A stretch of DNA of 64,000 nucleotides from a virus (IMGVR_UViG_3300027963_000043:1-64000); one strand, 5' to 3'. Positions 4,167 through 31,925 are shown, counted from the first letter of the stretch. Translations and numbers: made by a program. Notes: generated from the letters alone by a model not told the origin.

Positions 4167-4185
4167 TATAGTGTAATTTTCAGCG

Positions 4186-5174: not shown

Positions 5175-5903
5175 ATGTCTAAAAAAAATAAACAAAAAGA
5201 AGACAAGTCAACTCCAGTTCCTCAAAGAGATAAAATTGAAGGTTTTTTGAATATTCGCGAATTACAATGGACAGAGAATCAAAAGAAATTTATTCAATTA
5301 CTTCAAGATAAAAATACTAAAATGGTATTTTGTAAAGGCCCAGCGGGAACAGCTAAAAGTTTACTTAGTGTATATGCAGCTTTACATGCAATCAATAGTA
5401 AAAAAATTGGTGAGATATTTTATATTCGTAATCCAGTAGAAAGTTCTTCTCATAATCTAGGATTCCTTAAAGGAGATCTTCATAGTAAACTTGATCCTTA
5501 TCTTCAACCATTGATGGATAAACTTAATGAGTTGTTACCTAAAGGACAAGTTGAAATGTTACTAAAACAAGAAAGAGTTAAAGGTTTACCAGTTGGATTT
5601 CTTCGTGGCCTTAGCATAAACGCTAGTTATATTATATGCGACGAAGCTCAAAATTTAAGTATACATGATTTATTATTAATTACTACCAGAATGGGTAAAT
5701 TTAGTAAATTAATATTAATAGGAGACATTAGACAAGCAGATATTAAAAATAGTGGATTTGATAAAATTTATAATCTTTTTGATGATAAAAAAAGTAAAGA
5801 TAAAGGCATTTGTACTTTTAAATTTGGAAAAGAAGATATTATGAGAAATGATATATTGGCTTATATTATTGAAAAATTTGAAGAATTAGATAATAAAAAA
5901 TAA
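5175..5903 (+). CDS. phoH: PhoH-family ATPase
   Basis: Walker A GPAGTAKS; LGFLKGDL..KLDPY, F(L)RG, CDEAQN, TRMG, GDIRQAD, EDIMRN. Confidence 0.92.
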   Translation: MSKKNKQKEDKSTPVPQRDKIEGFLNIRELQWTENQKKFIQLLQDKNTKMVFCKGPAGTAKSLLSVYAALHAINSKKIGEIFYIRNPVESSSHNLGFLKGDLHSKLDPYLQPLMDKLNELLPKGQVEMLLKQERVKGLPVGFLRGLSINASYIICDEAQNLSIHDLLLITTRMGKFSKLILIGDIRQADIKNSGFDKIYNLFDDKKSKDKGICTFKFGKEDIMRNDILAYIIEKFEELDNKK

Positions 5904-6218: not shown

Positions 6219-6240
6219 AAATTAAAGTGTAATAATATTT

Positions 6241-6850: not shown

Positions 6851-8029
6851 ATGAAAAAAGTAGAAATTGACTTTAGTTCTAGTTTAGCTAAAAAAGGTAA
6901 AGCCCCACTTAATAAACCATTTAGACTTCCTTCTGGAAGCAAAAAGAAATTTGGCGTTTATGTAAAGAACGATAAAGGTAATATTGTAAAAGTTACTTTT
7001 GGCGATCCAAACATGTCAATTAAAAGAGACAATCCTGAAAGACGCAAATCTTATAGAGCAAGACACGGTTGCGATAATCCTGGCCCAAAATGGAAAGCTA
7101 ATTATTGGAGTTGTAAAATGTGGAGCGCGAAGCCAGTTAGTAAAATTACTGCAAGTGAAGAAGAAATTACTTTAGAAGCAGAAGTGCAAGGTAAAAATAA
7201 AGGACTTTGGTACAACATTCAACAAAAGAAAAAAAGAATGGGTAAAAATTATCGTCCAGCAAAACCAGGATCTCCTGATCGCCCAACTCCAGAAGCTCTT
7301 AAAAAAGCTCAAGCAGAAGATTATTCTAACGAACAATACGAATGGGATGGGGAAACAGAGTTTGATCAAACTGTATTTTTAGAAGACAAATCTTTAGCTC
7401 AAGTTGAAGAAGTAGAAGATGAATTTGAAGATTATAAAGAAGATTTTTATGGAATGATAGTTGGTTCAATCAATTCTATCTATCAACATTCAAAAAATGT
7501 AGTTGAAAAATTAAATGATCCAATGGTGAAAGAAAATCTTACAGAACCATTCTTACAACAAATGGCTATTCTTGCAGAAGATTATATGATTACTATTCAT
7601 AATTATGTAATGTTCAATAAAGAAAACGAAGAGCCAGAAGATATGGAAGAAAGCGAAGCCTCTACAATGTTTAAAGTTGGAGACAAAGTTCGTAATGTAA
7701 ATGCAAATTGCAAACATTATGGTAGTGAAGGAATCGTTAAAGAAATTCGTGATTTACCAGAAAACATGGGGTACGCAGTTATGTACGAATGCACAAATGA
7801 TGGATCAACTTGGAAAAAAGGTGATATGCTCGGTAAAACAGAAATTCAACTAGTAAAAGCTTCTTATAATAAAAAATATCAAATAGAAGCAGATGAAGAA
7901 TACAAAAAAATGATGACCATTGAAGGTGAAAAAATCAATGAGTTCTTAAAAAAATGTATTCCTACAAAAAAAGGTGATGATAAATCTAAATTTAAATCTT
8001 GCCTTGAAGACTACAAAAAAAATAAGTAA
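6851..8029 (+). CDS. Multi-module phage protein (possible internal head protein)
   Basis: Distinct small modules (KVTFGDPNM...RARHGC...YWSCKMW; GLWYNIQQKK...PTPEALKK; SH3-like FKVGDKV...) separated by acidic linkers. Confidence 0.65.
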   Translation: MKKVEIDFSSSLAKKGKAPLNKPFRLPSGSKKKFGVYVKNDKGNIVKVTFGDPNMSIKRDNPERRKSYRARHGCDNPGPKWKANYWSCKMWSAKPVSKITASEEEITLEAEVQGKNKGLWYNIQQKKKRMGKNYRPAKPGSPDRPTPEALKKAQAEDYSNEQYEWDGETEFDQTVFLEDKSLAQVEEVEDEFEDYKEDFYGMIVGSINSIYQHSKNVVEKLNDPMVKENLTEPFLQQMAILAEDYMITIHNYVMFNKENEEPEDMEESEASTMFKVGDKVRNVNANCKHYGSEGIVKEIRDLPENMGYAVMYECTNDGSTWKKGDMLGKTEIQLVKASYNKKYQIEADEEYKKMMTIEGEKINEFLKKCIPTKKGDDKSKFKSCLEDYKKNK

Positions 8030-8540
8030 ACTCTGGAACTGGAAAACAAAAACATTACTTGTTGGGGTTGCGTTAATCGTATCTTGGATCTCCTGCTTAA
8101 AAATTGGATTTGAATTAAAGAAATATAACTCAATAACAAATCTTCCTAATTCTTGTTTTGTCGATTCAATGATTTATGCTTCTAGATGTAATCTTCTTTT
8201 AATAAGTAGTTCTGATACTTGGAACAGCGTCTATGGTTTTACCTTTGGTTATAAAGATGATAAAGAAGCTATCCTTGGTCATGCAGTTTGTGTTTTTGAG
8301 TATAATAATAATTTATGGATGTATGATCCTAATTGGGGCACATCTCCTATATGCAAAATTGGAGATAGAAAAAAATACAAAGAAAAAATAAAGTTGTATA
8401 TAAACAAAACTTACCCTATAATAGTAATAGAGGATTTTATGTTAAATGATTGGACATATGTTCAAAAAACAAAGAAAAATAAAATGAACAAAACTTATCA
8501 AGAGGTGTCTATACATTTAGATGAAGACAAGAAGGAGTAA
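7974..8540 (+). CDS. Membrane-anchored papain-like fold protein (start uncertain)
   Basis: Hydrophobic N-terminal segment. NSCFVDS, GHAVCVF and WMYDPNWG form a putative Cys-His-Asp triad. Confidence 0.55.
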   Translation: MMINLNLNLALKTTKKISKLWNWKTKTLLVGVALIVSWISCLKIGFELKKYNSITNLPNSCFVDSMIYASRCNLLLISSSDTWNSVYGFTFGYKDDKEAILGHAVCVFEYNNNLWMYDPNWGTSPICKIGDRKKYKEKIKLYINKTYPIIVIEDFMLNDWTYVQKTKKNKMNKTYQEVSIHLDEDKKE

Positions 8541-8549
8541 ACTAATATC

Positions 8550-9296
8550 ATGAAAATAAACCTATTAAAAAGGTTACTAAGAAGCAAAGCCGCAAATTTA
8601 ATTGCGGCTTTTTTAATGCTCAATAGCGCTAATGCAGCTACTGTTTACTGGAATAATGATAATGGATATGGAGATCGTTCATGGTCAGATGACTACAACT
8701 GGAATGGTGGCTCACCTACTAGCATGGATAACGCTTTGATTATGGGAACTGAATGGAATATTAGTCTAGATAATATGCCAATTGTAAATACTGCAAATAA
8801 CTTTGCAGATCAAATTTATGTACGTAGAGGAGCAGGAATATCAATTACTACAAATGGATCACTTCTTGCAAAAGATTTAATTACAGGCTTAGATGGAAAT
8901 TCAAATGTAGTTGATATCTCAGGAGGGCTTTTAACATTAACAGGTATATTAAATCTTGGTGCTGGAGGATATGATGGAAAAGTAAATATATCAAATGGAA
9001 GTTTAGTCGCTAATAGCCTTTCAATCAATACTTTAGGAGGCGCAGGAATAAACATTGGTCAATCTGGAACATTTATTGTTGAATATACTGCTACTAATTT
9101 TAATAATATTAATTATTGGATTGGAGTAAATGCTATTACTGCAGATGGTGGTGCAGGAATAGTTGATATAAATACTACTACTTATGCAGATAAAATTGTA
9201 CTTAGTGCAATACCAGAACCAAGCATTTATGCAAGTTTTGGAATTGGATTAATTGCTTTACTTTCAGTTCGTAATTTCAATAAAAAAAGGATATAA
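8550..9296 (+). CDS. PEP-CTERM sorting-domain protein
   Basis: N-terminal signal peptide (..NSANAA). C-terminus AIPEPSIYASFGIGLIALLSVRNFNKKRI is PEP motif + TM + basic tail. SD AAGGAG. Confidence 0.88.
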   Translation: MKINLLKRLLRSKAANLIAAFLMLNSANAATVYWNNDNGYGDRSWSDDYNWNGGSPTSMDNALIMGTEWNISLDNMPIVNTANNFADQIYVRRGAGISITTNGSLLAKDLITGLDGNSNVVDISGGLLTLTGILNLGAGGYDGKVNISNGSLVANSLSINTLGGAGINIGQSGTFIVEYTATNFNNINYWIGVNAITADGGAGIVDINTTTYADKIVLSAIPEPSIYASFGIGLIALLSVRNFNKKRI

Positions 9297-9300
9297 ATTT

Positions 9301-11760
9301 ATGAAAAAAATAATACTAACAATACTAACAGCATTAACACTAACTGTTAATTCACAAGCAGTAGTTTTCTTGTGGAATAATACTGGAACAAATTGGACGT
9401 CTCCAACAAGTTGGACAAATGGAGCGCAACCTGCATCTACTAGTTCTAGTACTACTACAGATGAAATTCAATTTGGTAATTTTGGAGTCAGTAACAATAC
9501 TGTTGTATTGACTTCTACCAGATCTACAAGAAATATAACATTCCTAACTAATGCAAATGCATATTTGATTAACAGTTTCAATGGTACACAAACAGTATCA
9601 TCTAGTGGAGGTATTACAAATAACTCTACTGCTACTCAAACATTTAATATATTAGTAGAAAATGCTAACGCCAGCAATACTTGGTTTCAAACAGCAGGTG
9701 GTGGATTGGTATTTAATAATATAGCTTCACTTACCACCGCTTCTTCAAGTACATCTAGAACTCTTACTCTTGCAGGAGATGGTTCATTCACATTCAACAA
9801 TGAACTCAGACAAGGACCTCTATCAACTGCTGGTAAAGTTATATACACAGGTAACGGTAGCGTCACATTCAATGGTAACAATACGCTGGGTGGAGGATTT
9901 GATATGACAGGAGGTGGCACTGTGACTGTTAATGGTGCTACTGGTATGGGTACTGGTGCAATAACACTTGGAGGAGCAAGTGGTACAACTAATATGCCCA
10001 AGCTTATAGTTAATACGGCTAACGGTTTATCTGCTTCTAATAGTTTGAAAGGTTCTACTAGTTTATCTACTATGGGAACATTGGATCTAGCAGGATCTAA
10101 TTCTGCTGCTGTTACTACTTATGTTATGAATCAATATCAAGGCAATAATATGAACTTTACCAATCATGGAGGATACAAGACATTACTGCAGTTTACTAAT
10201 AGTGCCAATACGCTCACTGTATCTTCAGGTTCTAGTGGTGGCAGAAGACTTTTTAACAACAGTACTAATTTAACTGTGCAGTTTGATGGTTCATTGGACA
10301 TTGGAGGAACAGTTGCAGATACAAGTGTTGTAGGTGGTGTAGGTGACTTTATATTTAAAGGTTCTCTACTCAATACTGGAGGAGCTATTAGAGGCTTAAC
10401 TAAGTCAGGAACTGGAACAGCAATTTTTCAAGCAGTCAATTCTTACAATGGTGATACTACTATACAAGATGGTACATTTATAGTTGATACTGCTGGTTCT
10501 ATTGCTTCTAGTGCTGCTATAATATCAGGTGGCACCTTAAGAGTTAAAGGTTCAGCTGGTAGTATAACTGCTAACGCAGGAAACTTAATAGTTGATAGCA
10601 CTGGGACTATTGGTAATTTCTCTATCGGTGTCACCACTACGGTATCAGTAGATGGTACAACTGGTACAATAACACAAGGCGGTGGCACCTTGGACTTGAG
10701 AGGGACTGGTAGTACATTCTCCATGTCTGCAGGAACTGCTACAGTGTATAATGGAGCGTTTCTTGGCAACTCTACCCTCACAGGAGGAAGCTTGCTCAAT
10801 AGCGGTACAATAGGCGAAACAACCATTGCCACAGGCAGTACTTTTGATGTAAAGACAGGTGGTACATCTTCTAAAGCTACTGTAAATGGTGGTACTTTGT
10901 TGGTATCAGGATCAGTCGCACAGACTGTTGTTAATTCTGGTACAGCCACAGTAAATTCTGGTGGCAATTCTGGTATCACAACTGTTAATGGCAGCACATT
11001 GGATGTATATGGAAGAACTGGTATATCAACAGTAAATACTGGTGGTACACTCAATGTAAAATCAGGCGGTAGTCTCTTAGGTACTAGTACTGTTGGTGGT
11101 GGTACTTTATTAGTAGAAGGAACAGCTGGAACTGTTATAGTTAATTCTGGCACAGCAACAGTTAATACTGGTGGCGTTATTGGTAGTACAACTATCAATG
11201 GAAGTTTACTATCAGTAAATGGAAGCGCAGGAGATGTTTTAGTAAATACAGGAGGTACATTAGGTGGCTCTGGTAGTGTGCAGGGCTTAACTCTAAATGG
11301 TGGTACTGTGGCCCCTGGCAATAGCCCTGGTCTGCTAACTGCTTATGAGTTGAATGGAAGTAATGGAACATTCCAATTCCAATTAGGCGCACCAACTACC
11401 AGAGGTATTACCTACGATGCAATTAATGTAACTAGCTTATTAACATTGGGAGCTAATACAGTATTTACATTTGAGACATTGGATAATTATATATATGCAG
11501 ATGGTAATACATATGATTTATTTGATTGGGGTTCAGCTGACATGAGCACATTTGATGTAGCAGTATTAGAAGCTGCTCTTCCTAATCTAAATACTCCTAG
11601 TACAGATCTCAAGTGGAATGTTAGTAACTTTACTACAGATGGTACAATTGGTGTTATACCAGAACCTTCTACAGGTTCACTCATGATGTTTGGTATTGCT
11701 AGCTTGATTACGCTCAAAGCTATAAGGAGAAAAAAATGCCAACATCAAAATCATTCTTAG
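9301..11760 (+). CDS. Large PEP-CTERM protein with autotransporter-associated beta-strand repeats
   Basis: Start re-called to ATG 9301 (MKKIILT..SQA signal peptide). GLTKSGTGT...NSYNGDTTIQDGT repeat, G/T-rich beta-helix, TVAPGNSPG, and C-terminal VIPEPSTGSLMMFGIASLITLKAIRRKK. Confidence 0.9.
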   Translation: MKKIILTILTALTLTVNSQAVVFLWNNTGTNWTSPTSWTNGAQPASTSSSTTTDEIQFGNFGVSNNTVVLTSTRSTRNITFLTNANAYLINSFNGTQTVSSSGGITNNSTATQTFNILVENANASNTWFQTAGGGLVFNNIASLTTASSSTSRTLTLAGDGSFTFNNELRQGPLSTAGKVIYTGNGSVTFNGNNTLGGGFDMTGGGTVTVNGATGMGTGAITLGGASGTTNMPKLIVNTANGLSASNSLKGSTSLSTMGTLDLAGSNSAAVTTYVMNQYQGNNMNFTNHGGYKTLLQFTNSANTLTVSSGSSGGRRLFNNSTNLTVQFDGSLDIGGTVADTSVVGGVGDFIFKGSLLNTGGAIRGLTKSGTGTAIFQAVNSYNGDTTIQDGTFIVDTAGSIASSAAIISGGTLRVKGSAGSITANAGNLIVDSTGTIGNFSIGVTTTVSVDGTTGTITQGGGTLDLRGTGSTFSMSAGTATVYNGAFLGNSTLTGGSLLNSGTIGETTIATGSTFDVKTGGTSSKATVNGGTLLVSGSVAQTVVNSGTATVNSGGNSGITTVNGSTLDVYGRTGISTVNTGGTLNVKSGGSLLGTSTVGGGTLLVEGTAGTVIVNSGTATVNTGGVIGSTTINGSLLSVNGSAGDVLVNTGGTLGGSGSVQGLTLNGGTVAPGNSPGLLTAYELNGSNGTFQFQLGAPTTRGITYDAINVTSLLTLGANTVFTFETLDNYIYADGNTYDLFDWGSADMSTFDVAVLEAALPNLNTPSTDLKWNVSNFTTDGTIGVIPEPSTGSLMMFGIASLITLKAIRRKKCQHQNHS

Positions 11761-12404
11761 AGCATTTAAGATTATTAAAACTCTCACATTTTGGTTTTAC
11801 ATTAGTTGAAATGTTAGTTGTAATTGGTATAATTGGATTATTAGCGAGTTTGATATTTCCTGCGTATTCATCCGTTAAACGTAAATCATCTCAAGCTGTT
11901 TGTGCATCAAATATGAAACAAGTAGGTATGGCAATTAATTTATTTGCTAATGATAATGATGGTTGGCTTCCTCCTGGTCCAGATGGTCAAACAATCAATA
12001 CATTTATTCGAGATTCTAGGTATGGAGGCAATACTGCAAATGTTGTTGATAAATCTAATCTTGAATATTATATTACAAATTATATAACTGTTCGATCTAT
12101 AGGTGGTAAAAAAAGAAAAGGTAATCCAGTCTTTACTTGTCCAGCACATGATGAAAAACATTCTATAATATGGAAAAGAGGATCTTGTTTTGGTGGAGCT
12201 GGCGGAGTATATGGCATACAAAATTCAGAAAAATTAATTGGAGTAGATACAAATGATTATTTTTTAGTTGATTTTACAAAGGCTTTTACAAATCATTCGA
12301 CTATATCTTTAAATGAAACAGTAAAAAATCCTCATGGTCAATTTAGAAATCTGTTAAGAACAGATGGTAGTGTAATATTAGAATCTGATACAAAAATTAG
12401 ATAG
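11736..12404 (+). CDS. Prepilin-type N-terminal cleavage/methylation protein with H-X9-DG C-terminal motif
   Basis: G|FTLVEMLVVIGIIGLLASLIFPA; C.SNMKQVGMA..LFANDNDGWLP; H-GQFRNLLRT-DG near the C-terminus. SD AAGGAG. Confidence 0.92.
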   Translation: MPTSKSFLEHLRLLKLSHFGFTLVEMLVVIGIIGLLASLIFPAYSSVKRKSSQAVCASNMKQVGMAINLFANDNDGWLPPGPDGQTINTFIRDSRYGGNTANVVDKSNLEYYITNYITVRSIGGKKRKGNPVFTCPAHDEKHSIIWKRGSCFGGAGGVYGIQNSEKLIGVDTNDYFLVDFTKAFTNHSTISLNETVKNPHGQFRNLLRTDGSVILESDTKIR

Positions 12405-12412
12405 AATAAAGA

Positions 12413-12682
12413 ATGGAAAATGATATGAGAAACCTATTATTAGATAATTACGAAAAGAGTCTTCCGTCTAAAAGGGATACAGAAGATTTTATAACTAATT
12501 TTCATCAATATAGAGCCAAAAAGAAAGCTCAACAAAAAACACATTATGGATTACTTTTTGCTTGCATTTTAATATTAACCATGATAGGATCAATTGTGGC
12601 CAAACAAACTAAAAATAATTTAGATATACAAACCGCAGCTGGATTAGAAAAATGCAATACGCAACTCATGGAAAAAAAGTAG
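12413..12682 (+). CDS. Small single-TM protein (anti-sigma-like topology, low confidence)
   Basis: Charged N-terminal region, TM YGLLFACILILTMIGSIV, short C-tail ending at A-AAA-AAG-TAG. Confidence 0.55.
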   Translation: MENDMRNLLLDNYEKSLPSKRDTEDFITNFHQYRAKKKAQQKTHYGLLFACILILTMIGSIVAKQTKNNLDIQTAAGLEKCNTQLMEKK

Positions 12683-12870
12683 TCTTTGAAGGAGATGTCA
12701 AAGAAGTATCTAATTGGGTAAATAAAAACGTTGGAGATCATCAAACAGTATCACTAAAAGAATATTTTCAAGATGATATTTTTGGGGTATATAAAAATGG
12801 CGAAGAAAATTATAGATACTATTATCAATGTTTGGGCCATGGAAGATATTCAATTTTCATAATACAATGA
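12652..12870 (+). CDS. Hypothetical protein (in the -1 frame of 12413..12682)
   Basis: 72-aa ORF overlapping the upstream gene by 31 nt. ATGA overlap with the next gene. Confidence 0.6.
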   Translation: MQYATHGKKVVFEGDVKEVSNWVNKNVGDHQTVSLKEYFQDDIFGVYKNGEENYRYYYQCLGHGRYSIFIIQ

Positions 12871-13181
12871 AATCATTTATAACATCAGAGTTATTACTTT
12901 ATTTATCATTATTTCCAATAGCTGCTATTTGTGCATTTTTTTATACAAAAAACGTTGGACCTATAAAGCAATATAATCTTGGTCTTGATTTTGAATATGT
13001 GCCAGTTGATGAAGGATCATCTTTTATATGTAAAGCAGAACCAATAGGCGAGAATAGTCATCCTTGGATTTTAAGCTTACAACCAAAACCAAAGCCAGTT
13101 ATAGATACAAATGAACACTATATATGTATAGGTTATATGAGAAAACGAATAAGATTAGTAACAAATTTATGCACAAATTAA
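12867..13181 (+). CDS. N-terminally membrane-anchored hypothetical protein
   Basis: Start re-called to ATG 12867 (ATGA overlap). MKSFITSELLLYLSLFPIAAICAFFY hydrophobic segment. Confidence 0.65.
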   Translation: MKSFITSELLLYLSLFPIAAICAFFYTKNVGPIKQYNLGLDFEYVPVDEGSSFICKAEPIGENSHPWILSLQPKPKPVIDTNEHYICIGYMRKRIRLVTNLCTN

Positions 13182-13217
13182 ATCTAATGAATTTAAACTT
13201 CACCTGTCTAATAGATT

Positions 13218-14114
13218 ATGAGAACATTAATTTATCTAGCTATATTAGCATTATCAACTCATAGTGCTTCTGCATCATTTGTATCATTTTTAAAAAATAA
13301 CGTATATAGAGTTGAGAACACAAATAAAGTTTCAGCAGTACTAAATGATAAAATAGAATCAAATACACAAGTTGGGACTGGTGAACAAAGTATGTGCGAA
13401 TTATCATTAGATGATAAGTCAGTCACAAGAATTGGTGCCAATGCAATTTTTTCTTTTACAGAACAAGAGAGATTAGTTAAATGCGATAAAGGAACATTTC
13501 TTGTTTCAAAAGATCCAGAAACAGAAACTATAACTGTAACAACAGGAAGTGTTACAGCTGCGATTAGTGGCAGTACTGTAGTGCTTGATGTAAAAGATGA
13601 TGCTACTCATATTGCAGTCGCTGAAACAACCAAAGGAGTTATAGTAACAGATAAAAATGGTAAATCAATGACATTACAATCTGGCGAAGGAATTTCTGCA
13701 ACACCAAATGGAATGACATCTTCAAGTCCAAAGAGTGTTGATATAAAAGATTTAATATCTTCATCACCTTTATTTACTGAAAAAGGATTAGCACCACTTG
13801 CTAACGATGCTTTAATTAAAGGTGTTACTAGCGCACAAGAAACTGCAAAAGCCCAAGGCATATCTTTTGCTAGTGAAATAAATGATGTAGTATGTGGTAG
13901 AATTGATAGCGCAACTGCTTTAGGTAAAGTTGATGGAGGTGATATTCCTGATATTGATACTGCTGCTGGTTCTGAAGTATCAACTAGTCCTGCACCAGTG
14001 GGTAGTGGAGCAGGAGCAGTATCTAACTCACAACAGTTTAATCCTTTAATGAATCCTAATCTTGTACCACCAGTAACTTCAAATCCAAATCCTAGAGAAG
14101 CCACGCCAATTTAA
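13218..14114 (+). CDS. Secreted FecR-domain protein
   Basis: Signal peptide MRTLIYLAILALSTHSASA. FecR-type pattern VGTGEQSMCELSLDDKSVTRIGANAIF..GTFLV..VTTGSVTAAISGS. Pro/Ser-rich tail. Confidence 0.75.
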   Translation: MRTLIYLAILALSTHSASASFVSFLKNNVYRVENTNKVSAVLNDKIESNTQVGTGEQSMCELSLDDKSVTRIGANAIFSFTEQERLVKCDKGTFLVSKDPETETITVTTGSVTAAISGSTVVLDVKDDATHIAVAETTKGVIVTDKNGKSMTLQSGEGISATPNGMTSSSPKSVDIKDLISSSPLFTEKGLAPLANDALIKGVTSAQETAKAQGISFASEINDVVCGRIDSATALGKVDGGDIPDIDTAAGSEVSTSPAPVGSGAGAVSNSQQFNPLMNPNLVPPVTSNPNPREATPI

Positions 14115-14133
14115 TCTGGTGTAAGCTTTATGT

Positions 14134-14400
14134 ATGTTAATTAAAATTAAGAATTGGTGGACTAATTTAAAAACTTATGATAAGTTCTTTTTTATCTCAT
14201 TTGTGCCAGCGATGCTTTTTACGTTTTGGGGGCTAAGTGACCTTTACTTTAATTACTTTGATTTATTAAGTAGAGAAGATCACCTTCAATTTTTTCTTAG
14301 AGTATTCTTTCCAGTATCAATAGCTACTTTAGTAACAGTATTAGAACGTAATAACAGGAAAAAATTAATAAAAGATATCAAAGATTATCTGGATGAATAA
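14134..14400 (+). CDS. Small two-TM membrane protein
   Basis: Two hydrophobic segments; 9 nt after GTGTAA. Confidence 0.65.
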   Translation: MLIKIKNWWTNLKTYDKFFFISFVPAMLFTFWGLSDLYFNYFDLLSREDHLQFFLRVFFPVSIATLVTVLERNNRKKLIKDIKDYLDE

Positions 14401-14543: not shown

Positions 14544-15296
14544 ATGAACATTTCGTTAATAACAGCTACTGGTTCAAGAAAATATGCATTTTCTCTTTGT
14601 GAGAAATATATATCAAATCAAACATTTAAAGATAATATTCAATGGATAGTTGTTGATGATGGAGAAATACCAACTCAAATTAATTTAAATCAAGAATATA
14701 TAAGATCAGATATTATATGGAAAGAAGGATTAAATACTCAGGCATATAATTTATTATTAGGATTAGAAAAAGTAAAAAATGATGTTCTATTTTTCATAGA
14801 AGATGATGATTGGTATAGCTCAAATTTTATTCAAAACATAATAGATTTTTTATTGAAAATTAAAAATCCTCAGATAGTAGGAGAAGCCAACTCATTAAAT
14901 TATAATCTCCTAACAAATCAATACTATTTATGTGAGATGCCTAGCATGGCAAGTTTATATAAAACTTGTATCACAAAAGATGTATACCCCTTTTTGAGAA
15001 AACTTTTATTATTTTATCATGAAAATAACAGTAAATTAATTAATAATCAAATTTTTATAGATGAAATGTTATGGAGTCAAAATATTAATACCTTTAATAA
15101 GCATTTAATAAATAATAATAATCTAGCGATTGGAATTAAAAATATGCCAGGAAGAAAAGGTGTCTGCGGACACGTTGATGATTATTCAAATTATATTAAA
15201 TATTTAAATAGTAAAAACTCTGGAATAGATAATAAAAGTCTTGATTTTTTGAAAAATACTATCAAAAATGACTATTTAAATTATATTAATATATAA
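14544..15296 (+). CDS. Glycosyltransferase family 2
   Basis: ISLITAT...NQT....QWIVVDDG and FFIEDDDWY motifs. Confidence 0.8.
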   Translation: MNISLITATGSRKYAFSLCEKYISNQTFKDNIQWIVVDDGEIPTQINLNQEYIRSDIIWKEGLNTQAYNLLLGLEKVKNDVLFFIEDDDWYSSNFIQNIIDFLLKIKNPQIVGEANSLNYNLLTNQYYLCEMPSMASLYKTCITKDVYPFLRKLLLFYHENNSKLINNQIFIDEMLWSQNINTFNKHLINNNNLAIGIKNMPGRKGVCGHVDDYSNYIKYLNSKNSGIDNKSLDFLKNTIKNDYLNYINI

Positions 15297-15333
15297 AATT
15301 AATACACTTATTGATTTAAGTGTAATAGAGAAT

Positions 15334-16053
15334 ATGCCAATACCTCAACCAAAAGATAATGAGAAACAAAACGATTATATGGGTCGTTGCATGCATAAAG
15401 TTAACAAAGATAATCCTAAAATGGAAAACAAGCAACAAGTTGCGATTTGTTTGAATACCTACAGTAATCCAAAAAAGAAAAGCAAAGCTAATGAAATTGA
15501 AGTAGATTTTTCAGAAGATATTAAAAATATGAACAAGCCACAAGAAATTAAAATAGAAGAAGCCCCAAAAATTGAAGCCAAAGTTGAGGAAGCTACAAAC
15601 ACAGCAGTAACTGCACCAGCGCCAGAAATTAAAGCTCAAGATAATATAGTCGATATTCCAGATGATCAAAATACTGAATCTTTAGATGGAGAAAAAATTC
15701 AAACAGCAATGCTTCAAATGCAAAAGCAATATCAAATTTTTCATTGGCAAACTACCTCATTCTCACAGCACAAAAGTTTTGGAAAAATCTATGAAAGTTT
15801 AGATGAAAACATAGATACTTTTATTGAAACATATATGGGCAAATATGGCAGAGTAATGGCCGCTTCTAAATTTAATCTTGAAATGTTCAATTATTCTGAT
15901 TTGAATTTTAGCGCCGCAACAGATTCATATATTGAATTTTTGATTGGATTAAATGATATGCTTGATGAAACTCGAGATTCAGATTTATTAAATACACGAG
16001 ATGAGATACTTGGCAGTTTAAATAGATTAAAATATCTATTAACATTGGTTTAA
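15334..16053 (+). CDS. Fusion protein: N-terminal small phage module plus C-terminal ferritin/Dps-like (DUF5856-like) domain
   Basis: C-terminal FHWQTTSFSQHKSFGKIYESLDENIDTFIETYMG...LLNTRDEILGSLNRLKYLLTL four-helix pattern. N-terminal MPIP.PK..E.Q..YM.RCM...Q.VAIC. Confidence 0.6.
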   Translation: MPIPQPKDNEKQNDYMGRCMHKVNKDNPKMENKQQVAICLNTYSNPKKKSKANEIEVDFSEDIKNMNKPQEIKIEEAPKIEAKVEEATNTAVTAPAPEIKAQDNIVDIPDDQNTESLDGEKIQTAMLQMQKQYQIFHWQTTSFSQHKSFGKIYESLDENIDTFIETYMGKYGRVMAASKFNLEMFNYSDLNFSAATDSYIEFLIGLNDMLDETRDSDLLNTRDEILGSLNRLKYLLTLV

Positions 16054-16089: not shown

Positions 16090-16761
16090 ATGCACGAAGT
16101 ACTGGCAATTTCAGATATTCACCTTGGCGATAAAGATTGTCAAGCTAGTCAATTATTAAAAGTCTTAAAAAAAGAAAAAGCAAAAACTATATTAATTGTT
16201 GGCGATCTTTTTGATCATCACAACCTAAATAGGCTTAATAAAACTCATTGGAAAGTATTATCTAAATTAAGAAAATTAAGCAAAAGAAGCAAAATTATAT
16301 ATTTAATTGGGAATCATTGTTTTCTTAAAGCAGAATTTATGAGTATTCTTCTTGGTTTTGATTGTAGAGATGAGTATGAATTTGAGATAAAAGATAAAAA
16401 ATTTATAGCAGTTCATGGTGATATATTTGATATATATTTTAGTAAGTATAAAAGTATCACAGAATTTATAGTTAATTTATATTATATCATTCGCCACTAT
16501 ACTCCATTCGCAGACAATTTCTTTAAATTATTAAGAAAGAAAACAGAATCATTAGGTGAAAAAACATCTAATATAAAGGGAAATGCTATTAAATACTGCG
16601 AATTTAATAATAAAGACTCAATTATTTGTGGTCATAGCCATAAACCTGAGCACGAATATAATAAATTTGAATATATTAATACTGGAAGTTTTTGTGAAGA
16701 AAAAGCTAGTTATGTTGTGATAGATAAAAAGGGTAAGGCAAATTTAATTTATTTAGATTAA
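16090..16761 (+). CDS. Calcineurin-like metallophosphoesterase, LpxH-like (UDP-2,3-diacylglucosamine diphosphatase-like)
   Basis: ISDIHLG, GDLFD, GNH, HGD, CGHSH and NTGSF motifs. Confidence 0.8.
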   Translation: MHEVLAISDIHLGDKDCQASQLLKVLKKEKAKTILIVGDLFDHHNLNRLNKTHWKVLSKLRKLSKRSKIIYLIGNHCFLKAEFMSILLGFDCRDEYEFEIKDKKFIAVHGDIFDIYFSKYKSITEFIVNLYYIIRHYTPFADNFFKLLRKKTESLGEKTSNIKGNAIKYCEFNNKDSIICGHSHKPEHEYNKFEYINTGSFCEEKASYVVIDKKGKANLIYLD

Positions 16762-16789: not shown

Positions 16790-17239
16790 ATGAAAAGATA
16801 TTGTATTTCTTGCGGATCGCCTACAGAATATAGCACTAAAAAACCATTATTCTGTTCAAGTTGTGGTAAATCATTTGATAAAATAGACAAAGTTGAAGTA
16901 AACCCAGTTGTTCAAAAAACTTTAATGCAAAAAAAGACAGTAGCCACTAAGAAATATATAGAAGATAAGAATCATGATACAGATTACGATATAGATTCTG
17001 ATGATATTGATTTAGATCAGGACAATGATATTTCTGTTCCAAACATATCAAAACTAGAAGTAGAGAGTGATTCTCAAGAAAATTTTAAAAATAAAGGAGA
17101 AAAAATAAGCTCTCTTGTAGGAACTTCTTCCTCAAAAGGTAAAAGGAATAAAATTGTTAAAAGTAGTAAAACTTCAAAAAAACAAATACTAGAAGATTTT
17201 GCTAAAGAAGCAGGTACATCAAGAAAATCTAAAAAATAA
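16790..17239 (+). CDS. Zinc-ribbon protein
   Basis: CISCG...FCSSCG, followed by acidic and Lys-rich regions. Start re-called to ATG 16790. TAATG coupling to the next gene. Confidence 0.7.
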   Translation: MKRYCISCGSPTEYSTKKPLFCSSCGKSFDKIDKVEVNPVVQKTLMQKKTVATKKYIEDKNHDTDYDIDSDDIDLDQDNDISVPNISKLEVESDSQENFKNKGEKISSLVGTSSSKGKRNKIVKSSKTSKKQILEDFAKEAGTSRKSKK

Positions 17240-17922
17240 TGAAGTCTCCAAAAGCTAGTTTTGAAAGTAGAATTTTGGAAATCAACCAAGAAATTAGCAA
17301 AAGAAAACATAAATGGAGTTTAACGACTTTAGCTTGGATGGATTTTAACGATGTATCTCAAATACTTAGGATACATATTTATAAAAAATGGAATATGTAC
17401 GATCAAAGTCAGCCTTTAGCTCCATGGGTTAATAGAATAGTAAGCAATCAAATTAAAAATTTAATAAGAAATAATTATGGAAATTATTCAAGACCATGCT
17501 TGAAATGTGCTGCAGCAGAAAATGATGATGGTTGCAATATATATGGTTCTCAATGCGATAAATGTCCACTTTATGCTAAATGGCAAAAAAGTAAAAAATC
17601 CGCACATGATATAAAATTGCCAGTGTCACTAGAAAATCATACTCAAGAAGTTCACAATATAATTGGCGATCAAATGGATATAGAGAAATCAGCAAAGAAT
17701 ATACATGCAAAAATGCGTCAAATTTTAAAACCAATCGAATGGAAATTTTACGAATTACATTATATAAAGCATAAATCTGAAGAGGAATCTGCAAAATTAA
17801 TGGGATATAGAACAAATGAAAAAAATAGGAAAATTGGATATAAACAAGTTAAAAATCTTAAAAAATCCATTATGACAAAAGTTAAAAAGTATTTATATAA
17901 TGGAGATATAGATATTAATTAA
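17239..17922 (+). CDS. Phage sigma-70-family (ECF-like) RNA polymerase sigma factor with Cys-rich insertion
   Basis: Region-2-like DFNDVSQILRIHIYKKWNMYDQSQPLAPWVNRIVSNQIKNLIR. Region-4-like LKPIEWKFYELHYIKHKSEEESAKLMGY. Insertion CLKC-x8-C-x6-CDKC. Confidence 0.72.
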   Translation: MKSPKASFESRILEINQEISKRKHKWSLTTLAWMDFNDVSQILRIHIYKKWNMYDQSQPLAPWVNRIVSNQIKNLIRNNYGNYSRPCLKCAAAENDDGCNIYGSQCDKCPLYAKWQKSKKSAHDIKLPVSLENHTQEVHNIIGDQMDIEKSAKNIHAKMRQILKPIEWKFYELHYIKHKSEEESAKLMGYRTNEKNRKIGYKQVKNLKKSIMTKVKKYLYNGDIDIN

Positions 17923-19022: not shown

Positions 19023-19958
19023 ATGTCAGTCATATGCAAAGTAGACGGAAAAGAGTTTCCAACTGAGAAGGCATTGCATATGTCACTCAAGGGTTATGGT
19101 TTAAATAAGGTAAAATACTATCAAAAATATTTTGAAAGACGGGATTTATTAACAAATGAACTTATTAATTTCAAAACTAAAGAGCAATATTTAAACAGTG
19201 ATTTTAATGATAAAAACAATATGAAAAAATGGTTAAAGCAGCAGCCAATCGAAAAAGCTCAAGAATATTGCAAGCAACTCTTATCCAAGAGAAAAGATGA
19301 TAAAAATTTAACCTATACCCCCTCTCAAGTAGAGTTAAGAACAATTATGGCACCATCTATTGTTTTTTATAATAAGATATTTGAAGATTACTATGATGTT
19401 TGTTCAATTTTAGGATTAGAAAATAGATTCATTCATCCAAAAAATATAACAGACCAATTTAAAAATAAATTAAATAAAAAATCAATTATATACGTTGATA
19501 CAAGAGAGCAAAGTTGGCTAAAGTTTGATACAAAGTTTGAAATTAAAACTTTGCCATTTGGAGATTATTCTTGTAGTAATGATAATTGTAAATGCTTTAT
19601 AGAAAGAAAAAGCTTAAGTGATTTTATAAGCACATTAAGTGTTAAAAATTTTGATAGATTTAAAAACGAAATAGATCGAGCAAAGAAAAACGGAGCATAT
19701 TTGATTGTTATAGTTGAAGAAAAATTATCTAATGCACTTAGCTTTCAGTATCTTCCGCATATTAGCAAAAAAATTAAAGCAACTCCAGAATATATATTCC
19801 ATAATGTTCGAGAATTATTGCAAAACTATGATAATCTACAATTTCTTTTTGTAGATGGAAGAGGAGAGATGACAAGGATAATTGAGTCTATTTTTACATC
19901 AAATTGCTTTTATAAGCAAATAGATCTTCAATTAGCTTATGATCTAAAACTATTATGA
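19023..19958 (+). CDS. ERCC4/XPF-family nuclease domain protein
   Basis: IYVDTREQ, TLPFGDYS and IERKSLSDF match the XPF/ERCC4 catalytic pattern. Degenerate Zn-finger-like N-terminus. Confidence 0.82.
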   Translation: MSVICKVDGKEFPTEKALHMSLKGYGLNKVKYYQKYFERRDLLTNELINFKTKEQYLNSDFNDKNNMKKWLKQQPIEKAQEYCKQLLSKRKDDKNLTYTPSQVELRTIMAPSIVFYNKIFEDYYDVCSILGLENRFIHPKNITDQFKNKLNKKSIIYVDTREQSWLKFDTKFEIKTLPFGDYSCSNDNCKCFIERKSLSDFISTLSVKNFDRFKNEIDRAKKNGAYLIVIVEEKLSNALSFQYLPHISKKIKATPEYIFHNVRELLQNYDNLQFLFVDGRGEMTRIIESIFTSNCFYKQIDLQLAYDLKLL

Positions 19959-21799
19959 TGTACTCTCCAGATAAATATAAAAAGGATTATCCAGATATTA
20001 ATAAACAATTAATGGAATTAAAAGGTATTCTTAATGATAAGGATGCTAAAATTTCTCTTGCTAAATTTTTAAGAGCTAATTTAGGTTTTACTACTGAACT
20101 TATAAGTGGTATTAAATTAGCCCCATACCAAGAAATTCATCTTAAAGGTTTATTGAATAGAAATTTTAGTATGTGCGTATTTGGTCGAGGTTGTGGCAAA
20201 AGCTTTATCGCAAGTGTATTTTGTTTTCTTCAATGCGTTTTCGAACCTAATACTAAAATTCTTATTGCAGGACCAACTTTTAGAACAGCTAGATTTATAT
20301 TCAATAATTTAGAAAAAATTGTAAATAGTAAAGGCGCGGAGCTTCTACAACAAGCTTTTGGCTCAAAAAGCAAAAGAAATGATCAATATGAATGGTCAAT
20401 AAATGGTGGAAGTATTGTAGCTATTCCTCTAAGCGGAGAAAAAATTCGAGGATTTCGCGCTAATGTATTAGTACTTGACGAGTTTCTTTTGTTATCAGAA
20501 GATATTGTTAAAACTGTTTTGATGCCATTCTTAGTTGCCCCACAAAATATGAAAGAACGAATGGAAATTAGAGAAATGGAGGATACTTTAATTAGAGAAG
20601 GAGCAATGAAAGAAGAAGATCGAATGGTTTTTGAAAATAATAGTAAAATGATAGCGCTATCTTCTGCAAGTTATACATTTGAAAATCTTTATAAAACATA
20701 TAACGAATGGGTAGAAAAAATCTATTCAAAAGAAGAAACGGAAGCATCTTATTTTGTATCTCAATTAAGTTATGAAGCTTTACCATTAGAGATGATAGAT
20801 AAAACAATTATTGAAGAAGCTCAAAATGGAGGATCAAGTCATAGTAGTTTCTTAAGAGAGTATTGCGCTAGATTTATTGATGGTAGCGATAGCTATTTCA
20901 GTGCAAAAAAGATGGAAGAATGTACTATTCCAAACGGGCAATCTCCTCATACTTTAATGAAAGGAATTCCAGGAAAAAAATATATTCTCGGAATTGATCC
21001 TAATATGAGTGATAGTCCTAATGCGGATTATTTTGCTATGGCAGTAATGGAGATTGATGAAGAAACTAAAACTGGCACATTAGTTCACACTTACGCTGGA
21101 TTAGGAAATTTAAAAAATCATGTTAATTATTTATATTATATTATGACTAATTTTAATATTGTATTTATGATTTTAGATAATGCTGGAGCAGATGTATTTC
21201 TTTCTGCTTGCAATCAATCTGAATTATTTAAAAGTAATAATTTGATACTTAATACTTTTGAATTTAATTCTGATTTAGAAGGTGCAGATTATGATCAAGA
21301 AGTTAGAAAAGTTAGAAATAGTTACAATCTAGAATCGAAGAAAATAGCTTTTAATCAAGTATTCACCAGCAATTTTATTCGTAAAGCAAATGAACACTTG
21401 CAAGCGTCTATCGATTATAAAAAAGTATGGTTTGCTAGTAAAACCTGCGCAAATGATAATTTCTTTGAATCTCAATTTAATCAAAATATACCAATAGATT
21501 TAATGAAAACAGAAGAAAAGAAAGATTGGTCTACGCTTGATTTTATTGAAAATCAAGACGATTTCATTTACCAAACAAAAAAACAATGTACTCTTGTAGA
21601 ACATTCATCTACAGCCAGAGGAACTCAATCCTTTGATTTACCCCAACACTTGAAAAGAAGCTCTTCTGCAAATAAAGCTAGAAAAGATAATTATTCTGCA
21701 CTTTTATTGGTAAATTGGGGTTTAAAGTGCTATAATGATATAATAAACGCACCAAAAGAAGAAATATCTCAGACTTTCACCCCAATAATGATAAAATAA
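19955..21799 (+). CDS. terL: Terminase large subunit
   Basis: Walker A FGRGCGKS, IRGFRANVLVLDEF Walker B, ALSSA motif III, RNase H-like YILGIDP...ADYFAM, and C-terminal RKDNYSALL. Confidence 0.9.
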   Translation: MMYSPDKYKKDYPDINKQLMELKGILNDKDAKISLAKFLRANLGFTTELISGIKLAPYQEIHLKGLLNRNFSMCVFGRGCGKSFIASVFCFLQCVFEPNTKILIAGPTFRTARFIFNNLEKIVNSKGAELLQQAFGSKSKRNDQYEWSINGGSIVAIPLSGEKIRGFRANVLVLDEFLLLSEDIVKTVLMPFLVAPQNMKERMEIREMEDTLIREGAMKEEDRMVFENNSKMIALSSASYTFENLYKTYNEWVEKIYSKEETEASYFVSQLSYEALPLEMIDKTIIEEAQNGGSSHSSFLREYCARFIDGSDSYFSAKKMEECTIPNGQSPHTLMKGIPGKKYILGIDPNMSDSPNADYFAMAVMEIDEETKTGTLVHTYAGLGNLKNHVNYLYYIMTNFNIVFMILDNAGADVFLSACNQSELFKSNNLILNTFEFNSDLEGADYDQEVRKVRNSYNLESKKIAFNQVFTSNFIRKANEHLQASIDYKKVWFASKTCANDNFFESQFNQNIPIDLMKTEEKKDWSTLDFIENQDDFIYQTKKQCTLVEHSSTARGTQSFDLPQHLKRSSSANKARKDNYSALLLVNWGLKCYNDIINAPKEEISQTFTPIMIK

Positions 21800-29748: not shown

Positions 29749-31284
29749 ATGAATTTTCAATTTACAACAACATTTGCAAATTTACAAGTTAAACCATTAG
29801 TCAGCGAAGAGAAGGATAAATATCTTTCATTAGCGTCTATTGATAGTTTAAAGAAATTTTTGCCAGAAATTGATACAGAGAAAAATGTAGATCTTCTACC
29901 TATAGCTTTTGATGCTTGCGTAGTTAATAGAGTTAATAAAAATGGTGACGTAGTAAACTCTCTAACAGCAGCCGAAATGCTAAAAGATTTTATAAATAAA
30001 CCAATTAATGTTGAGCATGATAGAACAAAGGTCGTTGGTTGCATACTAACAGCTAATTTTAGTAAATTTGGTACAAATGAAGTCCTCTCTGAAGACCAAG
30101 TCAAAGATATGAAAGAACCATTTTATATTACTCTCGGAGGAGTAATTTGGAAGATTATTAATCCTCAATTATCTAATCTTATTGAAGAAAGTAATGACCC
30201 TTCTAGTGAAAATTATATGAACGTAAGCGCTAGTTGGGAACTTGGATTTAACGAATACGATTTAGTTCTTCTTAACGATAATAATAAAAATCTAGAAGAT
30301 GCCAAATTTGTATCCGATGACAAGCAAAAAGATAAATTAAAGAAAAATTTAAAAGCTTTTGGTGGTTCTGGTAAAATAGATAAAAATACATCTATTTATC
30401 GTCAAGTATTAGGAAATGTTATTCCATTAGGAATAGGCTTAACAGCTAATCCTGCTGCTGATGTACAAGGAGTAGCTACCAAAGATGAACAAAGTTTAGA
30501 AGTTGAAATATCTAAACCAGAGGAAAATGATCAAATGTCAGATTCTTCTGATATTAATTGTGAAAATAATATTTCACAAGATGAAGAAAATACTGTAAAT
30601 GAAGAAGGAGTTATAAACAGAATAATTATGAAAATAGAAAATATCAATCAAATAACCGATGAGCTTTTGAAGCAAGTAACTGCTTCTAGCATTTCCGATT
30701 TTATTCAAGAGGAACTTAAAAAAGCCTCAGAAGCTTTCACAGCTGAAAAGAATGAAAAAGATAGCGCTATTAAAGCTACTCAAGAAAAATACGATGCACT
30801 ATCTACTGAAAGTGAAAAAGTAAAAGAAGAGCTAGAAAAACTAAAAGCTTCTCTTGCTAAACTTGAAGAAGAGAAAGTTGCTAAAGCCCAAGAAGAAGCC
30901 TTCAATCTAAGAATGGCTACCTTTGACGAAGAATTTGATCTTTCTGATGAAGATCGCCAAGTTCTCGCAACTGATATCAAAGATTTAAATGATGAATCTT
31001 TTGCTGCTTATAAAAATAAGATGGCAGTTCTTATGAAAGAAAAAAATAAAGCTGCTAAAAAAGCAAAAGAAGACGAAATGAAAAAAAGTAAAGCTTCCGA
31101 AGTTAAAGAAGAAATTAAAGCTTCAACATCTTCAGAACAATCTGCAACCGAAGTTGTAGATGAAGTTCTCGACAATTCTAACGTTGAGAAGAATTCGATT
31201 CCAAATTCTACAACAACCGCTGAAGTTTCGCTACGTGAAAAATATAGCAAAGCTTTCGGTCTTGAAGGATTTGATATTAAATAA
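29749..31284 (+). CDS. Prohead protease with C-terminal scaffold-like coiled coil
   Basis: KPINVEHD, VSASWELGF and GIGLTANPAADV are assemblin/HK97-type protease-like motifs. E/K-rich coiled-coil C-half. Located upstream of the capsid genes. Confidence 0.72.
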   Translation: MNFQFTTTFANLQVKPLVSEEKDKYLSLASIDSLKKFLPEIDTEKNVDLLPIAFDACVVNRVNKNGDVVNSLTAAEMLKDFINKPINVEHDRTKVVGCILTANFSKFGTNEVLSEDQVKDMKEPFYITLGGVIWKIINPQLSNLIEESNDPSSENYMNVSASWELGFNEYDLVLLNDNNKNLEDAKFVSDDKQKDKLKKNLKAFGGSGKIDKNTSIYRQVLGNVIPLGIGLTANPAADVQGVATKDEQSLEVEISKPEENDQMSDSSDINCENNISQDEENTVNEEGVINRIIMKIENINQITDELLKQVTASSISDFIQEELKKASEAFTAEKNEKDSAIKATQEKYDALSTESEKVKEELEKLKASLAKLEEEKVAKAQEEAFNLRMATFDEEFDLSDEDRQVLATDIKDLNDESFAAYKNKMAVLMKEKNKAAKKAKEDEMKKSKASEVKEEIKASTSSEQSATEVVDEVLDNSNVEKNSIPNSTTTAEVSLREKYSKAFGLEGFDIK

Positions 31285-31305
31285 TAAACAAGGAGAAATA
31301 AATTT

Positions 31306-31905: not shown

Positions 31906-31925
31906 TTTAAGGAGAATTACAAAAA

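Follow-up and report, generated by a model that had tools for sequence, protein, structure and literature searches.

Why would a phage encode a compact set of exported and membrane proteins whose sorting signals match enzymes that the phage itself does not carry? The question is raised by positions 8550 to 14114 of IMGVR_UViG_3300027963_000043:1-64000, a stretch of 64,000 nucleotides (nt), hereafter the window, that forms the first 64 kb of a linear IMG/VR virus record of 133,591 bp, rated 87% complete and AT-rich (∼28% guanine plus cytosine [GC]). The record is identified as a phage by its large terminase gene (19955-21799) and by genes for tail proteins. The terminase shares no more than 27% identity with any of 50,697 GenBank phage records, among which it has no close cultured relative. 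The gene content points to a virulent, uncultured, large, tailed phage without an integrase gene. The interval had been singled out in an earlier note, made from the sequence alone, as a cell-surface cassette of seven genes (C1 to C7). We find that it belongs to a larger module, inherited with the phage and under purifying selection. Our leading reading, which is tentative and which we rate somewhat below an even chance, is that the module replaces or masks a host surface complex used by phages.

A seven-gene cassette within a larger module

The seven tightly coupled, co-oriented genes described in the earlier note are all present on the + strand between 8550 and 14114, overlapping or nearly touching one another. 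The C1 stop codon ends at 9296 and the C2 ATG begins at 9298, C2 and C3 overlap by 25 nt, C3 and C4 are 8 nt apart, C4 and C5 overlap by 31 nt, and 36 nt lie between C6 and C7. The gene set thus stands as proposed, but its borders do not, as the module extends past this interval to a peptidase-like gene upstream (g07974) and a membrane protein gene downstream (g14134). A scan of viral contigs with C3 recovered 13 loci from different metagenomes, on contigs of up to 217 kb; g14134 accompanies the cassette in 9 of the 13, and g07974 adjoins it in L004, L005, L011, L014, and L015. The features of the module, with sizes in amino acids (aa) and a slash for a predicted cleavage position, are as follows.

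7974-8540, + strand: g07974, putative membrane-anchored papain-like cysteine peptidase, accessory member
8550-9296, + strand: C1, 248 aa, predicted signal peptide, PEP-CTERM at 9210-9272
9298-11760, + strand: C2, 820 aa, predicted signal peptide, Gly/Thr/Ser-rich beta-strand repeats, marginal PEP-CTERM at 11656-11718
11736-12404, + strand: C3, 222 aa, prepilin-type, G/FTLVEM domain at 11793-11855, H-x9-DG at 12333-12368
12413-12682, + strand: C4, 89 aa, single-pass, N terminus inside as judged by charge, DIQTAAG at 12623-12643
12652-12870, + strand: C5, 72-aa domain in the -1 frame relative to C4
12673-12679, + strand: A_AAA_AAG heptamer directly 5′ of the C4 stop, candidate -1 frameshift site
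12828-13181, + strand: C6, 117 aa, signal-anchor, likely start at 12867
13218-14114, + strand: C7, 298 aa, secreted FecR-domain protein, DIDTAAG at 13950-13970
14134-14400, + strand: g14134, 88-aa membrane protein

Export signals and sorting enzymes

All but one of the seven genes had been said to carry an export or membrane signal, and C5 is indeed the sole exception. Sec-type signals are predicted for C1 (..NSANA/A), C2 (..NSQA/V), and C7 (..SASA/S), and C4 and C6 have one predicted transmembrane (TM) helix each. The C termini of C1 and C2 both consist of IPEPS, a TM helix, and a basic tail (KKR/RRKK). Against the hidden Markov model (HMM) TIGR02595, C1 scored 16.2 with a cut-off of 16 (20.3 in a six-frame search), and C2 scored 17.6 in the six-frame search but 13.7 by hmmscan; with PF07589 (cut-off, 20.7), the scores were 18.1 for C1 and 19.1 for C2. 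By the curated models the PEP-CTERM assignment appears clear for C1 and marginal for C2, with both proteins below the PF07589 cut-off. Residues P222, E223, P224, and S225 of C1 are invariant in an alignment of 15 C1-family members.

C2 has one match to the PATR repeat (PF12951; 28.6 against a cut-off of 27) and one PGNSPG motif, while TIGR02601, a model that the earlier note had put forward for this cassette, found nothing among its proteins at an E value of <0.1. No match to C2 was obtained at an E value of ≤1e-12 in five genomes of the Planctomycetes-Verrucomicrobia-Chlamydiae (PVC) group, and no solved structure was matched by sequence. C2 orthologues occur in 12 viral loci with 60 to 94% identity, with ratios of nonsynonymous to synonymous substitution (dN/dS) of 0.09 to 0.32, and C1 is found among the viral loci in the window and in L006. 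The PEP-CTERM genes of the relatives differ in number (1 to 3) and in sequence, their signal peptides are swapped, L005 carries a rearrangement at the 3′ end of C2, and in several relatives the block adjoins variable genes that are candidate tail fibers. In L004 (7530-7620) and L005 (6890-6980), C2 begins with the signal peptide that C1 bears in the window (MKINLLKRLL...AAFLM, 8550-8640), and C2 of the window carries a different one; this exchange looks like a recombination mosaic that arose when C1 was inserted.

C3 has a 20-aa leader followed by G/FTLVEM and CxSNMKQVG, with G20, F21, and E25 invariant. It scored 25.7 against TIGR02532 (cut-off, 16.3) and 23.8 against PF07963 (cut-off, 21.2), which bears out the class III prepilin signal reported for it. 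The H-X9-DG motif also attributed to C3 is present as literal residues, H200-x9-D210-G211, which do not vary among 10 phage orthologues and are conserved to at least 90% in a joint alignment with cellular DUF1559 proteins, but C3 itself has no hit to the corresponding models TIGR04294 and PF07596 at an E value of <0.1. When C3 relatives were aligned under the phage copy, TIGR04294 matched 12 of the 35, these being cellular members. The AlphaFold2 (AF2) model of C3 is of low confidence, with a long N-terminal helix, and its top eight Foldseek matches are all type IV pilins, none of them significant. The C3 family comprises 73 clusters at ≥65% identity, followed by a gap down to an E value of ∼1e-17. 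Its distant relatives are DUF1559/H-X9-DG proteins of Planctomycetota, Verrucomicrobiota, Lentisphaeria, and Armatimonadota, of which the best cellular ones share 38 to 40% identity over residues 20 to 139. No C3 relative was found among the GenBank phage records searched with the terminase.

Among the 170 open reading frames (ORFs) scanned in the record, PEP-CTERM and prepilin motifs are confined to the cassette. The lack of an exosortase or prepilin peptidase that had been reported for the window holds across the whole 133,591-bp record, in which PF09721 and PF01478 have no match, and neither enzyme nor a tyrosine integrase was found here or in the two relatives rated complete.

Cellular counterparts and the probable host

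The C1 family is continuous from 97% to 36% identity, and two of its members lie in plainly cellular contigs. A contig of 50% GC carries a copy that is 61% identical to C1, together with a paralogue, a sulfatase, RhaT, and a 223-aa prepilin-type gene. On a contig of 66% GC, a 39%-identical copy and a DUF1559 gene are arranged back to back, close to genes for PATR and NHL proteins that end in PEP-CTERM tails. RhaT of the former contig shares 60% identity with that of a subdivision-3 metagenome-assembled genome (MAG) of Verrucomicrobia and up to 77% within the order of that MAG; three Lentisphaeria genomes and one Tepidisphaeraceae genome gave no match to it. The subdivision-3 MAG is rich in PATR repeats, which the Tepidisphaeraceae genome also has and the three Lentisphaeria genomes lack. 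The host is probably a verrucomicrobium, a best guess that follows from homology, and the 61%-identical C1 copy points to subdivision 3. Strong matches to the C1 domain were found in 2 of 301 genomes of the order of that MAG (G482 and G534), and a search of 401 genomes from the phylum of G001 turned up two weak partial matches only. So few matches suggest that the host clade is either narrow or poorly sampled.

In G482 and G534, a gene for an H-X9-DG prepilin lies 43 to 1,120 nt from the C1-domain gene at five of five loci, and the pairing also occurs in L055. Chance adjacency would be ∼2% per locus, given the 28 and 57 H-X9-DG paralogues of the two genomes. The H-X9-DG prepilin and the C1-type exoprotein genes thus form a pair in verrucomicrobial cells as they do in the phage. 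Exosortases are present in both genomes. The cellular pairs (L055, L056, and L065 to L068) resemble the phage genes in the adjacency of the partners, in the same N-terminal YWNN..W..NW domain, and in up to 61% identity to C1, and all, like the cassette, would depend on Sec and prepilin peptidase and some on exosortase. They differ from the cassette in that the large partners in G482 and G534 have no PEP-CTERM tails and that no FecR, C4/C5, C6, or peptidase gene accompanies them.

The earlier note had considered the gene mix typical of PVC chromosomes. This is borne out by the relatives of C3 and by the C1/H-X9-DG pairs but not by the FecR gene, as none of the FecR genes in five PVC genomes lies beside a PEP-CTERM or H-X9-DG gene; three of them are followed by a gene for a 700- to 780-aa membrane protein of no known family. 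A heme oxygenase neighbor was not seen in the cellular loci whose Pfam content was read. Because FecR is unlinked in these genomes, the full mix does not appear to have been simply copied from a chromosome as one operon. The phage genes other than C1 are distant from any cellular copy, and a tblastn search of all cassette proteins against cellular DNA matched the N termini of C3 alone, at 30 loci. These results led us to reject the recent capture of an entire host operon, C3 and C7 having no close cellular copies. Each of the two forms a large family of its own (at least 120 clusters at ≥75% identity for C7), and both families are old and abundant in phages.

Proposed replacement or masking of a host surface complex

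Because the products appear to be sortable only by host surface machinery, the phage most likely re-dresses the envelope of its host, and its lack of every sorting enzyme that would match its export signals supports this reading. During infection, the cassette proteins would cross the inner membrane via the host Sec system, C1 and C2 would be processed and anchored by a host exosortase, and C3 would be cleaved by the host prepilin peptidase and enter a host pseudopilus or type II/IV-like apparatus. C4(-C5), C7, and, in most relatives, the membrane-anchored papain-like peptidase would accompany them. C3 and the PEP-CTERM proteins are probably parts of one surface complex, since verrucomicrobial chromosomes keep such a pair adjacent. 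The phage-made versions would then replace or cover the host complex, so that further phages, or progeny meeting debris, would fail to adsorb. The changing number of PEP-CTERM genes and their exchanged signal peptides, next to candidate tail fiber genes, also speak for this reading.

The closest published precedent comes from phage pilins. FimU pilins of phages have been found experimentally to be built into the host pilus and to block adsorption, and PilA-like genes also occur in virulent phages (PMC12952977). C3 resembles P-FimU of F10-like Pseudomonas phages and the PilA-like proteins of Xylella prophages and virulent phages in being a pilin with a class III signal that would need processing and assembly by the host; the known phage pilins replace a host surface part and block adsorption (PMC12952977). 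C3 further differs from FimU and PilA in that it belongs to the H-X9-DG/DUF1559 lineage of PVC bacteria, is conserved instead of diversified, shares at most ∼40% identity, over part of its length, with cellular proteins, and is always coupled to a PEP-CTERM protein and small membrane proteins and usually to a FecR protein. The proposal that the system is undescribed therefore holds in part: phage pilins that replace host pilus parts are already published (PMC12952977), but our literature search yielded no description of PEP-CTERM or H-X9-DG genes in tailed phages. The only other virus-linked mention of PEP-CTERM that we came across concerns a mobile element of Dehalococcoides with virus-like features (bioRxiv 10.64898/2026.09.15.751708).

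Among systems for superinfection exclusion and receptor masking, the Imm and Sp proteins of phage T4 and Llp of phage T5 act on DNA entry or on a single receptor. The cassette shares with them the use of small exported or membrane proteins by a presumably lytic phage to change the infected envelope, but there is no sequence or fold relation, and the cassette is a multiprotein set of host type. In comparison with PEP-CTERM/exosortase sorting (TIGR02595, EpsH), C1 and C2 have the expected signal peptide, terminal PEP motif, TM helix, and basic tail, but they differ in that the sortase is not encoded with its substrates, because the genes sit in a virus.

Several observations weigh against replacement or masking. 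C3 is well conserved among the phage orthologues (68 to 96%), unlike the diversified FimU proteins of phages, and a direct swap for a host subunit is hypothetical, since the best cellular relatives of C3 reach ∼40% identity over part of its length. The promoter-like motif near the cassette, described below, belongs to the structural-gene class and would imply late expression, which fits classical early exclusion less well. The peptidase gene g07974 was not detected in G008, a complete 217-kb relative that keeps the motifs common to C4 and C7. Finally, the cellular counterparts lie in glycan degradation loci, which would favor a nutritional or adhesive role.

This last point leads to the best-surviving alternative, a somewhat less probable role in glycan capture or adhesion. 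The phage genes would be copies of a verrucomicrobial complex that binds polysaccharides or particles and would sustain nutrient supply or attachment where hosts are dense. The cellular pairs indeed lie amid genes for glycoside hydrolases of families GH106, GH43, and GH127 and AraC regulators, with a sulfatase and RhaT on the contig of 50% GC; the C1 tail weakly resembles flocculation-type PEP-CTERM proteins, and the FecR and single-pass proteins recall nutrient-linked trans-envelope signaling. The strong purifying selection and the absence of an obvious arms-race pattern in C3 would also suit such a role. However, the searches revealed no carbohydrate-binding or catalytic domain in C1, C2, or C3, the cassette includes no glycosidase or transporter, an orthologue of C2 could not be detected in the cellular genomes searched, and FecR is unlinked to such loci in the genomes examined.

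PVC bacteria possess hundreds of H-X9-DG prepilin and PEP-CTERM genes that lack assigned roles, and to our knowledge their phages have scarcely been studied. On a less probable reading, taken up below with the peptidase, H-X9-DG pseudopilins would, provided that their pairing in phage and cell is functional, be partner-specific display or secretion adaptors for the adjacent exoprotein, which would give a first functional handle on the very large DUF1559/H-X9-DG family of these bacteria. A minimal and strongly selected phage set would indicate which proteins work together, namely, a PEP-CTERM protein, a pseudopilin, membrane partners, and a peptidase. Replacement or masking would also widen the idea of phage-made host surface parts from Pseudomonas pili to exosortase-dependent surface proteins. 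The subdivision-3 Verrucomicrobia are a sequence-based host clue for a widespread group of uncultured phages.

FecR protein C7, a shared motif, and the adjoining putative peptidase

Residues 52 to 136 of C7 match the FecR domain (PF04773; 32.9 against a cut-off of 24) behind the predicted Sec signal, in agreement with the earlier description of this protein. C7 does not have the architecture of a FecR-type anti-sigma regulator, as it has a cleavable signal peptide only and neither a cytoplasmic anti-sigma domain nor a TM helix; likewise, the sigma-like gene g17239 is below threshold (21 bits against 24 for Sigma-70 region 2) and does not qualify as an extracytoplasmic function sigma partner. 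The sequence VPDIDTAAG is invariant in eight FecR orthologues, in which the surrounding sequence carries indels, and the C7 tail (...PNPxEATPI) is conserved. In four loci (including L009:11447-11779, L012:3131-3463, and L014:8010-8393), the FecR gene is replaced by one for a secreted protein of 110 to 127 aa that retains a (P)DTASG-like motif region and a ...PPVxS..P..ATPI tail. As it is kept in these FecR-less substitutes, the ATPI tail may be the functionally important part.

The motif DIxTA(A/S)G is common to C4 and C7. Two copies of the pattern [DN]xTA[AS]G were counted among the 170 ORFs, where 0.13 would be expected, and both lie in the cassette; many relatives read TASG, and C1 and C2 do not have the motif. 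It may be a processing site.

The product of g07974 has one TM helix (residues 28 to 46) and belongs to a family of 36 representative clusters. In an alignment of 26 diverse relatives, N59, C61, H103, A104, and G122 are invariant and D118 is nearly so, and an AF2 model (mean predicted local distance difference test score, 81.8) places the Cys at a helix start and the His and Asp on neighboring strands. Its best structural matches are Cys/His/Asp enzymes of the papain or transglutaminase-like kind and include AvrPphB (Z score, 7.3), vasohibin (6.4), SseI (6.4), staphopain (5.5), and, at rank 22, LapG (4.8). No Pfam family was matched, PF06035 included. From the model, we read g07974 as a membrane-anchored papain-like cysteine peptidase that would face the periplasm, and we assign it to no known family because the Z values are moderate.

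LapG is a periplasmic cysteine protease of the bacterial transglutaminase-like (BTLCP) family that cleaves the adhesin LapA at TAAG. The phage module similarly combines a putative periplasm-facing Cys/His/Asp peptidase with two neighboring exported proteins that carry TAAG-type motifs, and LapG-like cleavage is conceivable since the motif is common to C4 and C7 and conserved. The two systems differ in that g07974 has no PF06035 match and resembles LapG less than AvrPphB, vasohibin, and SseI, in that the adhesin-like C1 and C2 lack the motif, and in the TASG form of many relatives. The fold ranking and the one complete relative without a detectable peptidase weaken a strict LapG reading, and since G008 keeps the motifs, the link between peptidase and motif is not obligatory. 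It is doubtful, and clearly less probable than a role in glycan capture or adhesion, that the module is a self-contained kit of an adhesin-like PEP-CTERM protein, a cognate H-X9-DG pseudopilin, a dedicated peptidase, and two proteins released or switched at DIxTA(A/S)G.

Small proteins, a promoter-like motif, and the timing of expression

In C4, LDIQTA(A/S)G lies ten residues beyond the TM helix and is kept in relatives. C4 and C5 form a single 154-aa ORF in L006 (10660-11124), L007 (2376-2840), and L008 (10669-11133), with the order cytoplasmic head, TM helix, LDI(D/N)TASG, and C5 domain, whereas in the window and eight other loci C5 overlaps the end of C4 in the -1 frame. The heptamer directly 5′ of the C4 stop is A_AAA_AAG in the window and L005, G_GGA_AAA in L004, and G_GGA_AAG in L013. 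A slippery heptamer is thus present in four of the eight split loci read; the other four have only the noncanonical G_GAA_AAG, and no significant RNA structure was found downstream of the heptamer (z score, 0.33). A -1 frameshift product would match the fused form in length and put C5 outside the membrane, so a programmed frameshift joining C4 to C5 is possible; alternatively, C4 and C5 may be a split gene, the second half having lost its export signal. Profiles of C5 and C6 found no match in the PDB, fused C4-C5 gave at most weak leads in the ESM Atlas, and no anti-sigma HMM matched C4. C6 is variable and is missing from L003, L004, and L013.

The sequence GTGTAA(T) occurs within 60 nt 5′ of the start codon in 33 of 170 genes, most often at 14 to 16 nt, and 25 of the 83 upstream regions contain it where 1.4 would be expected; 22 copies of GTGTAAT were counted in the window against 9.4 expected. 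The sites cluster in the structural half of the genome, with few in the small-gene and minus-strand blocks. A scan for sigma-70 promoters and terminators gave no usable signal in this AT-rich DNA. GTGTAAT is likely a phage-specific promoter or translation start element, and g17239 (17239-17922, 227 aa), which is conserved beside the terminase block, may encode the phage's own sigma factor for this class. The sites are as follows.

GTGTAAT, + strand, at 4171, 5151, 5912, 6227, 12370, 15320, 21800, 23789, 25477, 26731, 33502, 36025, 36971, 37831, 42420, 44875, 46118, 48464, and 63355
6227-6233, + strand: GTGTAAT before g06241, the nearest copy upstream of the block
12370-12376, + strand: GTGTAAT within the 3′ end of C3, 43 nt before C4, conserved in the split lineage
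14119-14124, + strand: GTGTAA before g14134
15320-15326, + strand: GTGTAAT before g15334

The module and the structural genes are probably transcribed together, because the nearby GTGTAA(T) copies belong to the structural-gene class. This motif, the conservation of the small single-pass and periplasmic proteins, and the DIxTA(A/S)G sequence of C4 and C7 next to a membrane-anchored peptidase would all suit a function in envelope signaling or lysis timing, in which C4(-C5), C6, C7, g14134, and the peptidase act on the periplasm late in infection in the manner of RI, Imm, or Sp of T4, the PEP-CTERM and pilin proteins being secondary. We consider this improbable, slightly more so than the self-contained kit, as the block showed no sign of a holin, endolysin, or spanin, an anti-sigma assignment of C4 has no HMM support, and a 2.5-kb PEP-CTERM gene and its invariant coupling to C3 would be left unexplained. 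Replacement or masking of a host surface complex remains the reading that we place first.

Inheritance of the module with the phage

The synteny in related phages that the earlier note proposed to look for is found in the 13 viral contigs, in which the cassette is kept at the same place, with g06851/g07974 upstream and g14134, a DUF5856 gene, the sigma-like gene, and the terminase gene downstream; the records of two relatives, of 172 kb and 217 kb, are rated complete. The core of the module consists of C2, C3, C4, C5, C7 or its short substitute, and g14134. Pairwise dN/dS is 0.09 to 0.32 in every informative comparison of cassette genes with at least 60% amino acid identity, and 0.02 to 0.15 for the terminase. 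The exceptions are C6 (38 to 40% identity), with 0.45 to 0.47, and two near-identical or very short pairs, with 0.44 and 0.51. A chimeric assembly, or contaminating host DNA joined to that of the phage, which might be suspected from the GC content of 0.35 to 0.40 across C2 against ∼0.28 around it, has a negligible probability and is ruled out by the identical junctions and flanking phage genes in 13 independent contigs, both complete records included; the rise in GC follows from the Gly/Thr/Ser-rich composition of C2.

Neighboring genes

The genes flanking the module include those for a PhoH-like ATPase (5175-5903), the DUF5856 protein (15334-16053), a calcineurin-like phosphoesterase (16090-16761), and an ERCC4-type nuclease (19023-19958). 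Beyond a 144-nt AT-rich gap 3′ of the module lies a gene for a family 2 glycosyltransferase (14544-15296), which none of the 13 related loci shares; the genes at this position in the relatives are variable and are candidate tail fibers, at a guess from sequence, or other genes. Farther downstream, a gene for a 361-aa protein without a family match (31926-33011), in a region where GC reaches 0.39 to 0.45 (31000-33000), may be the major capsid gene.

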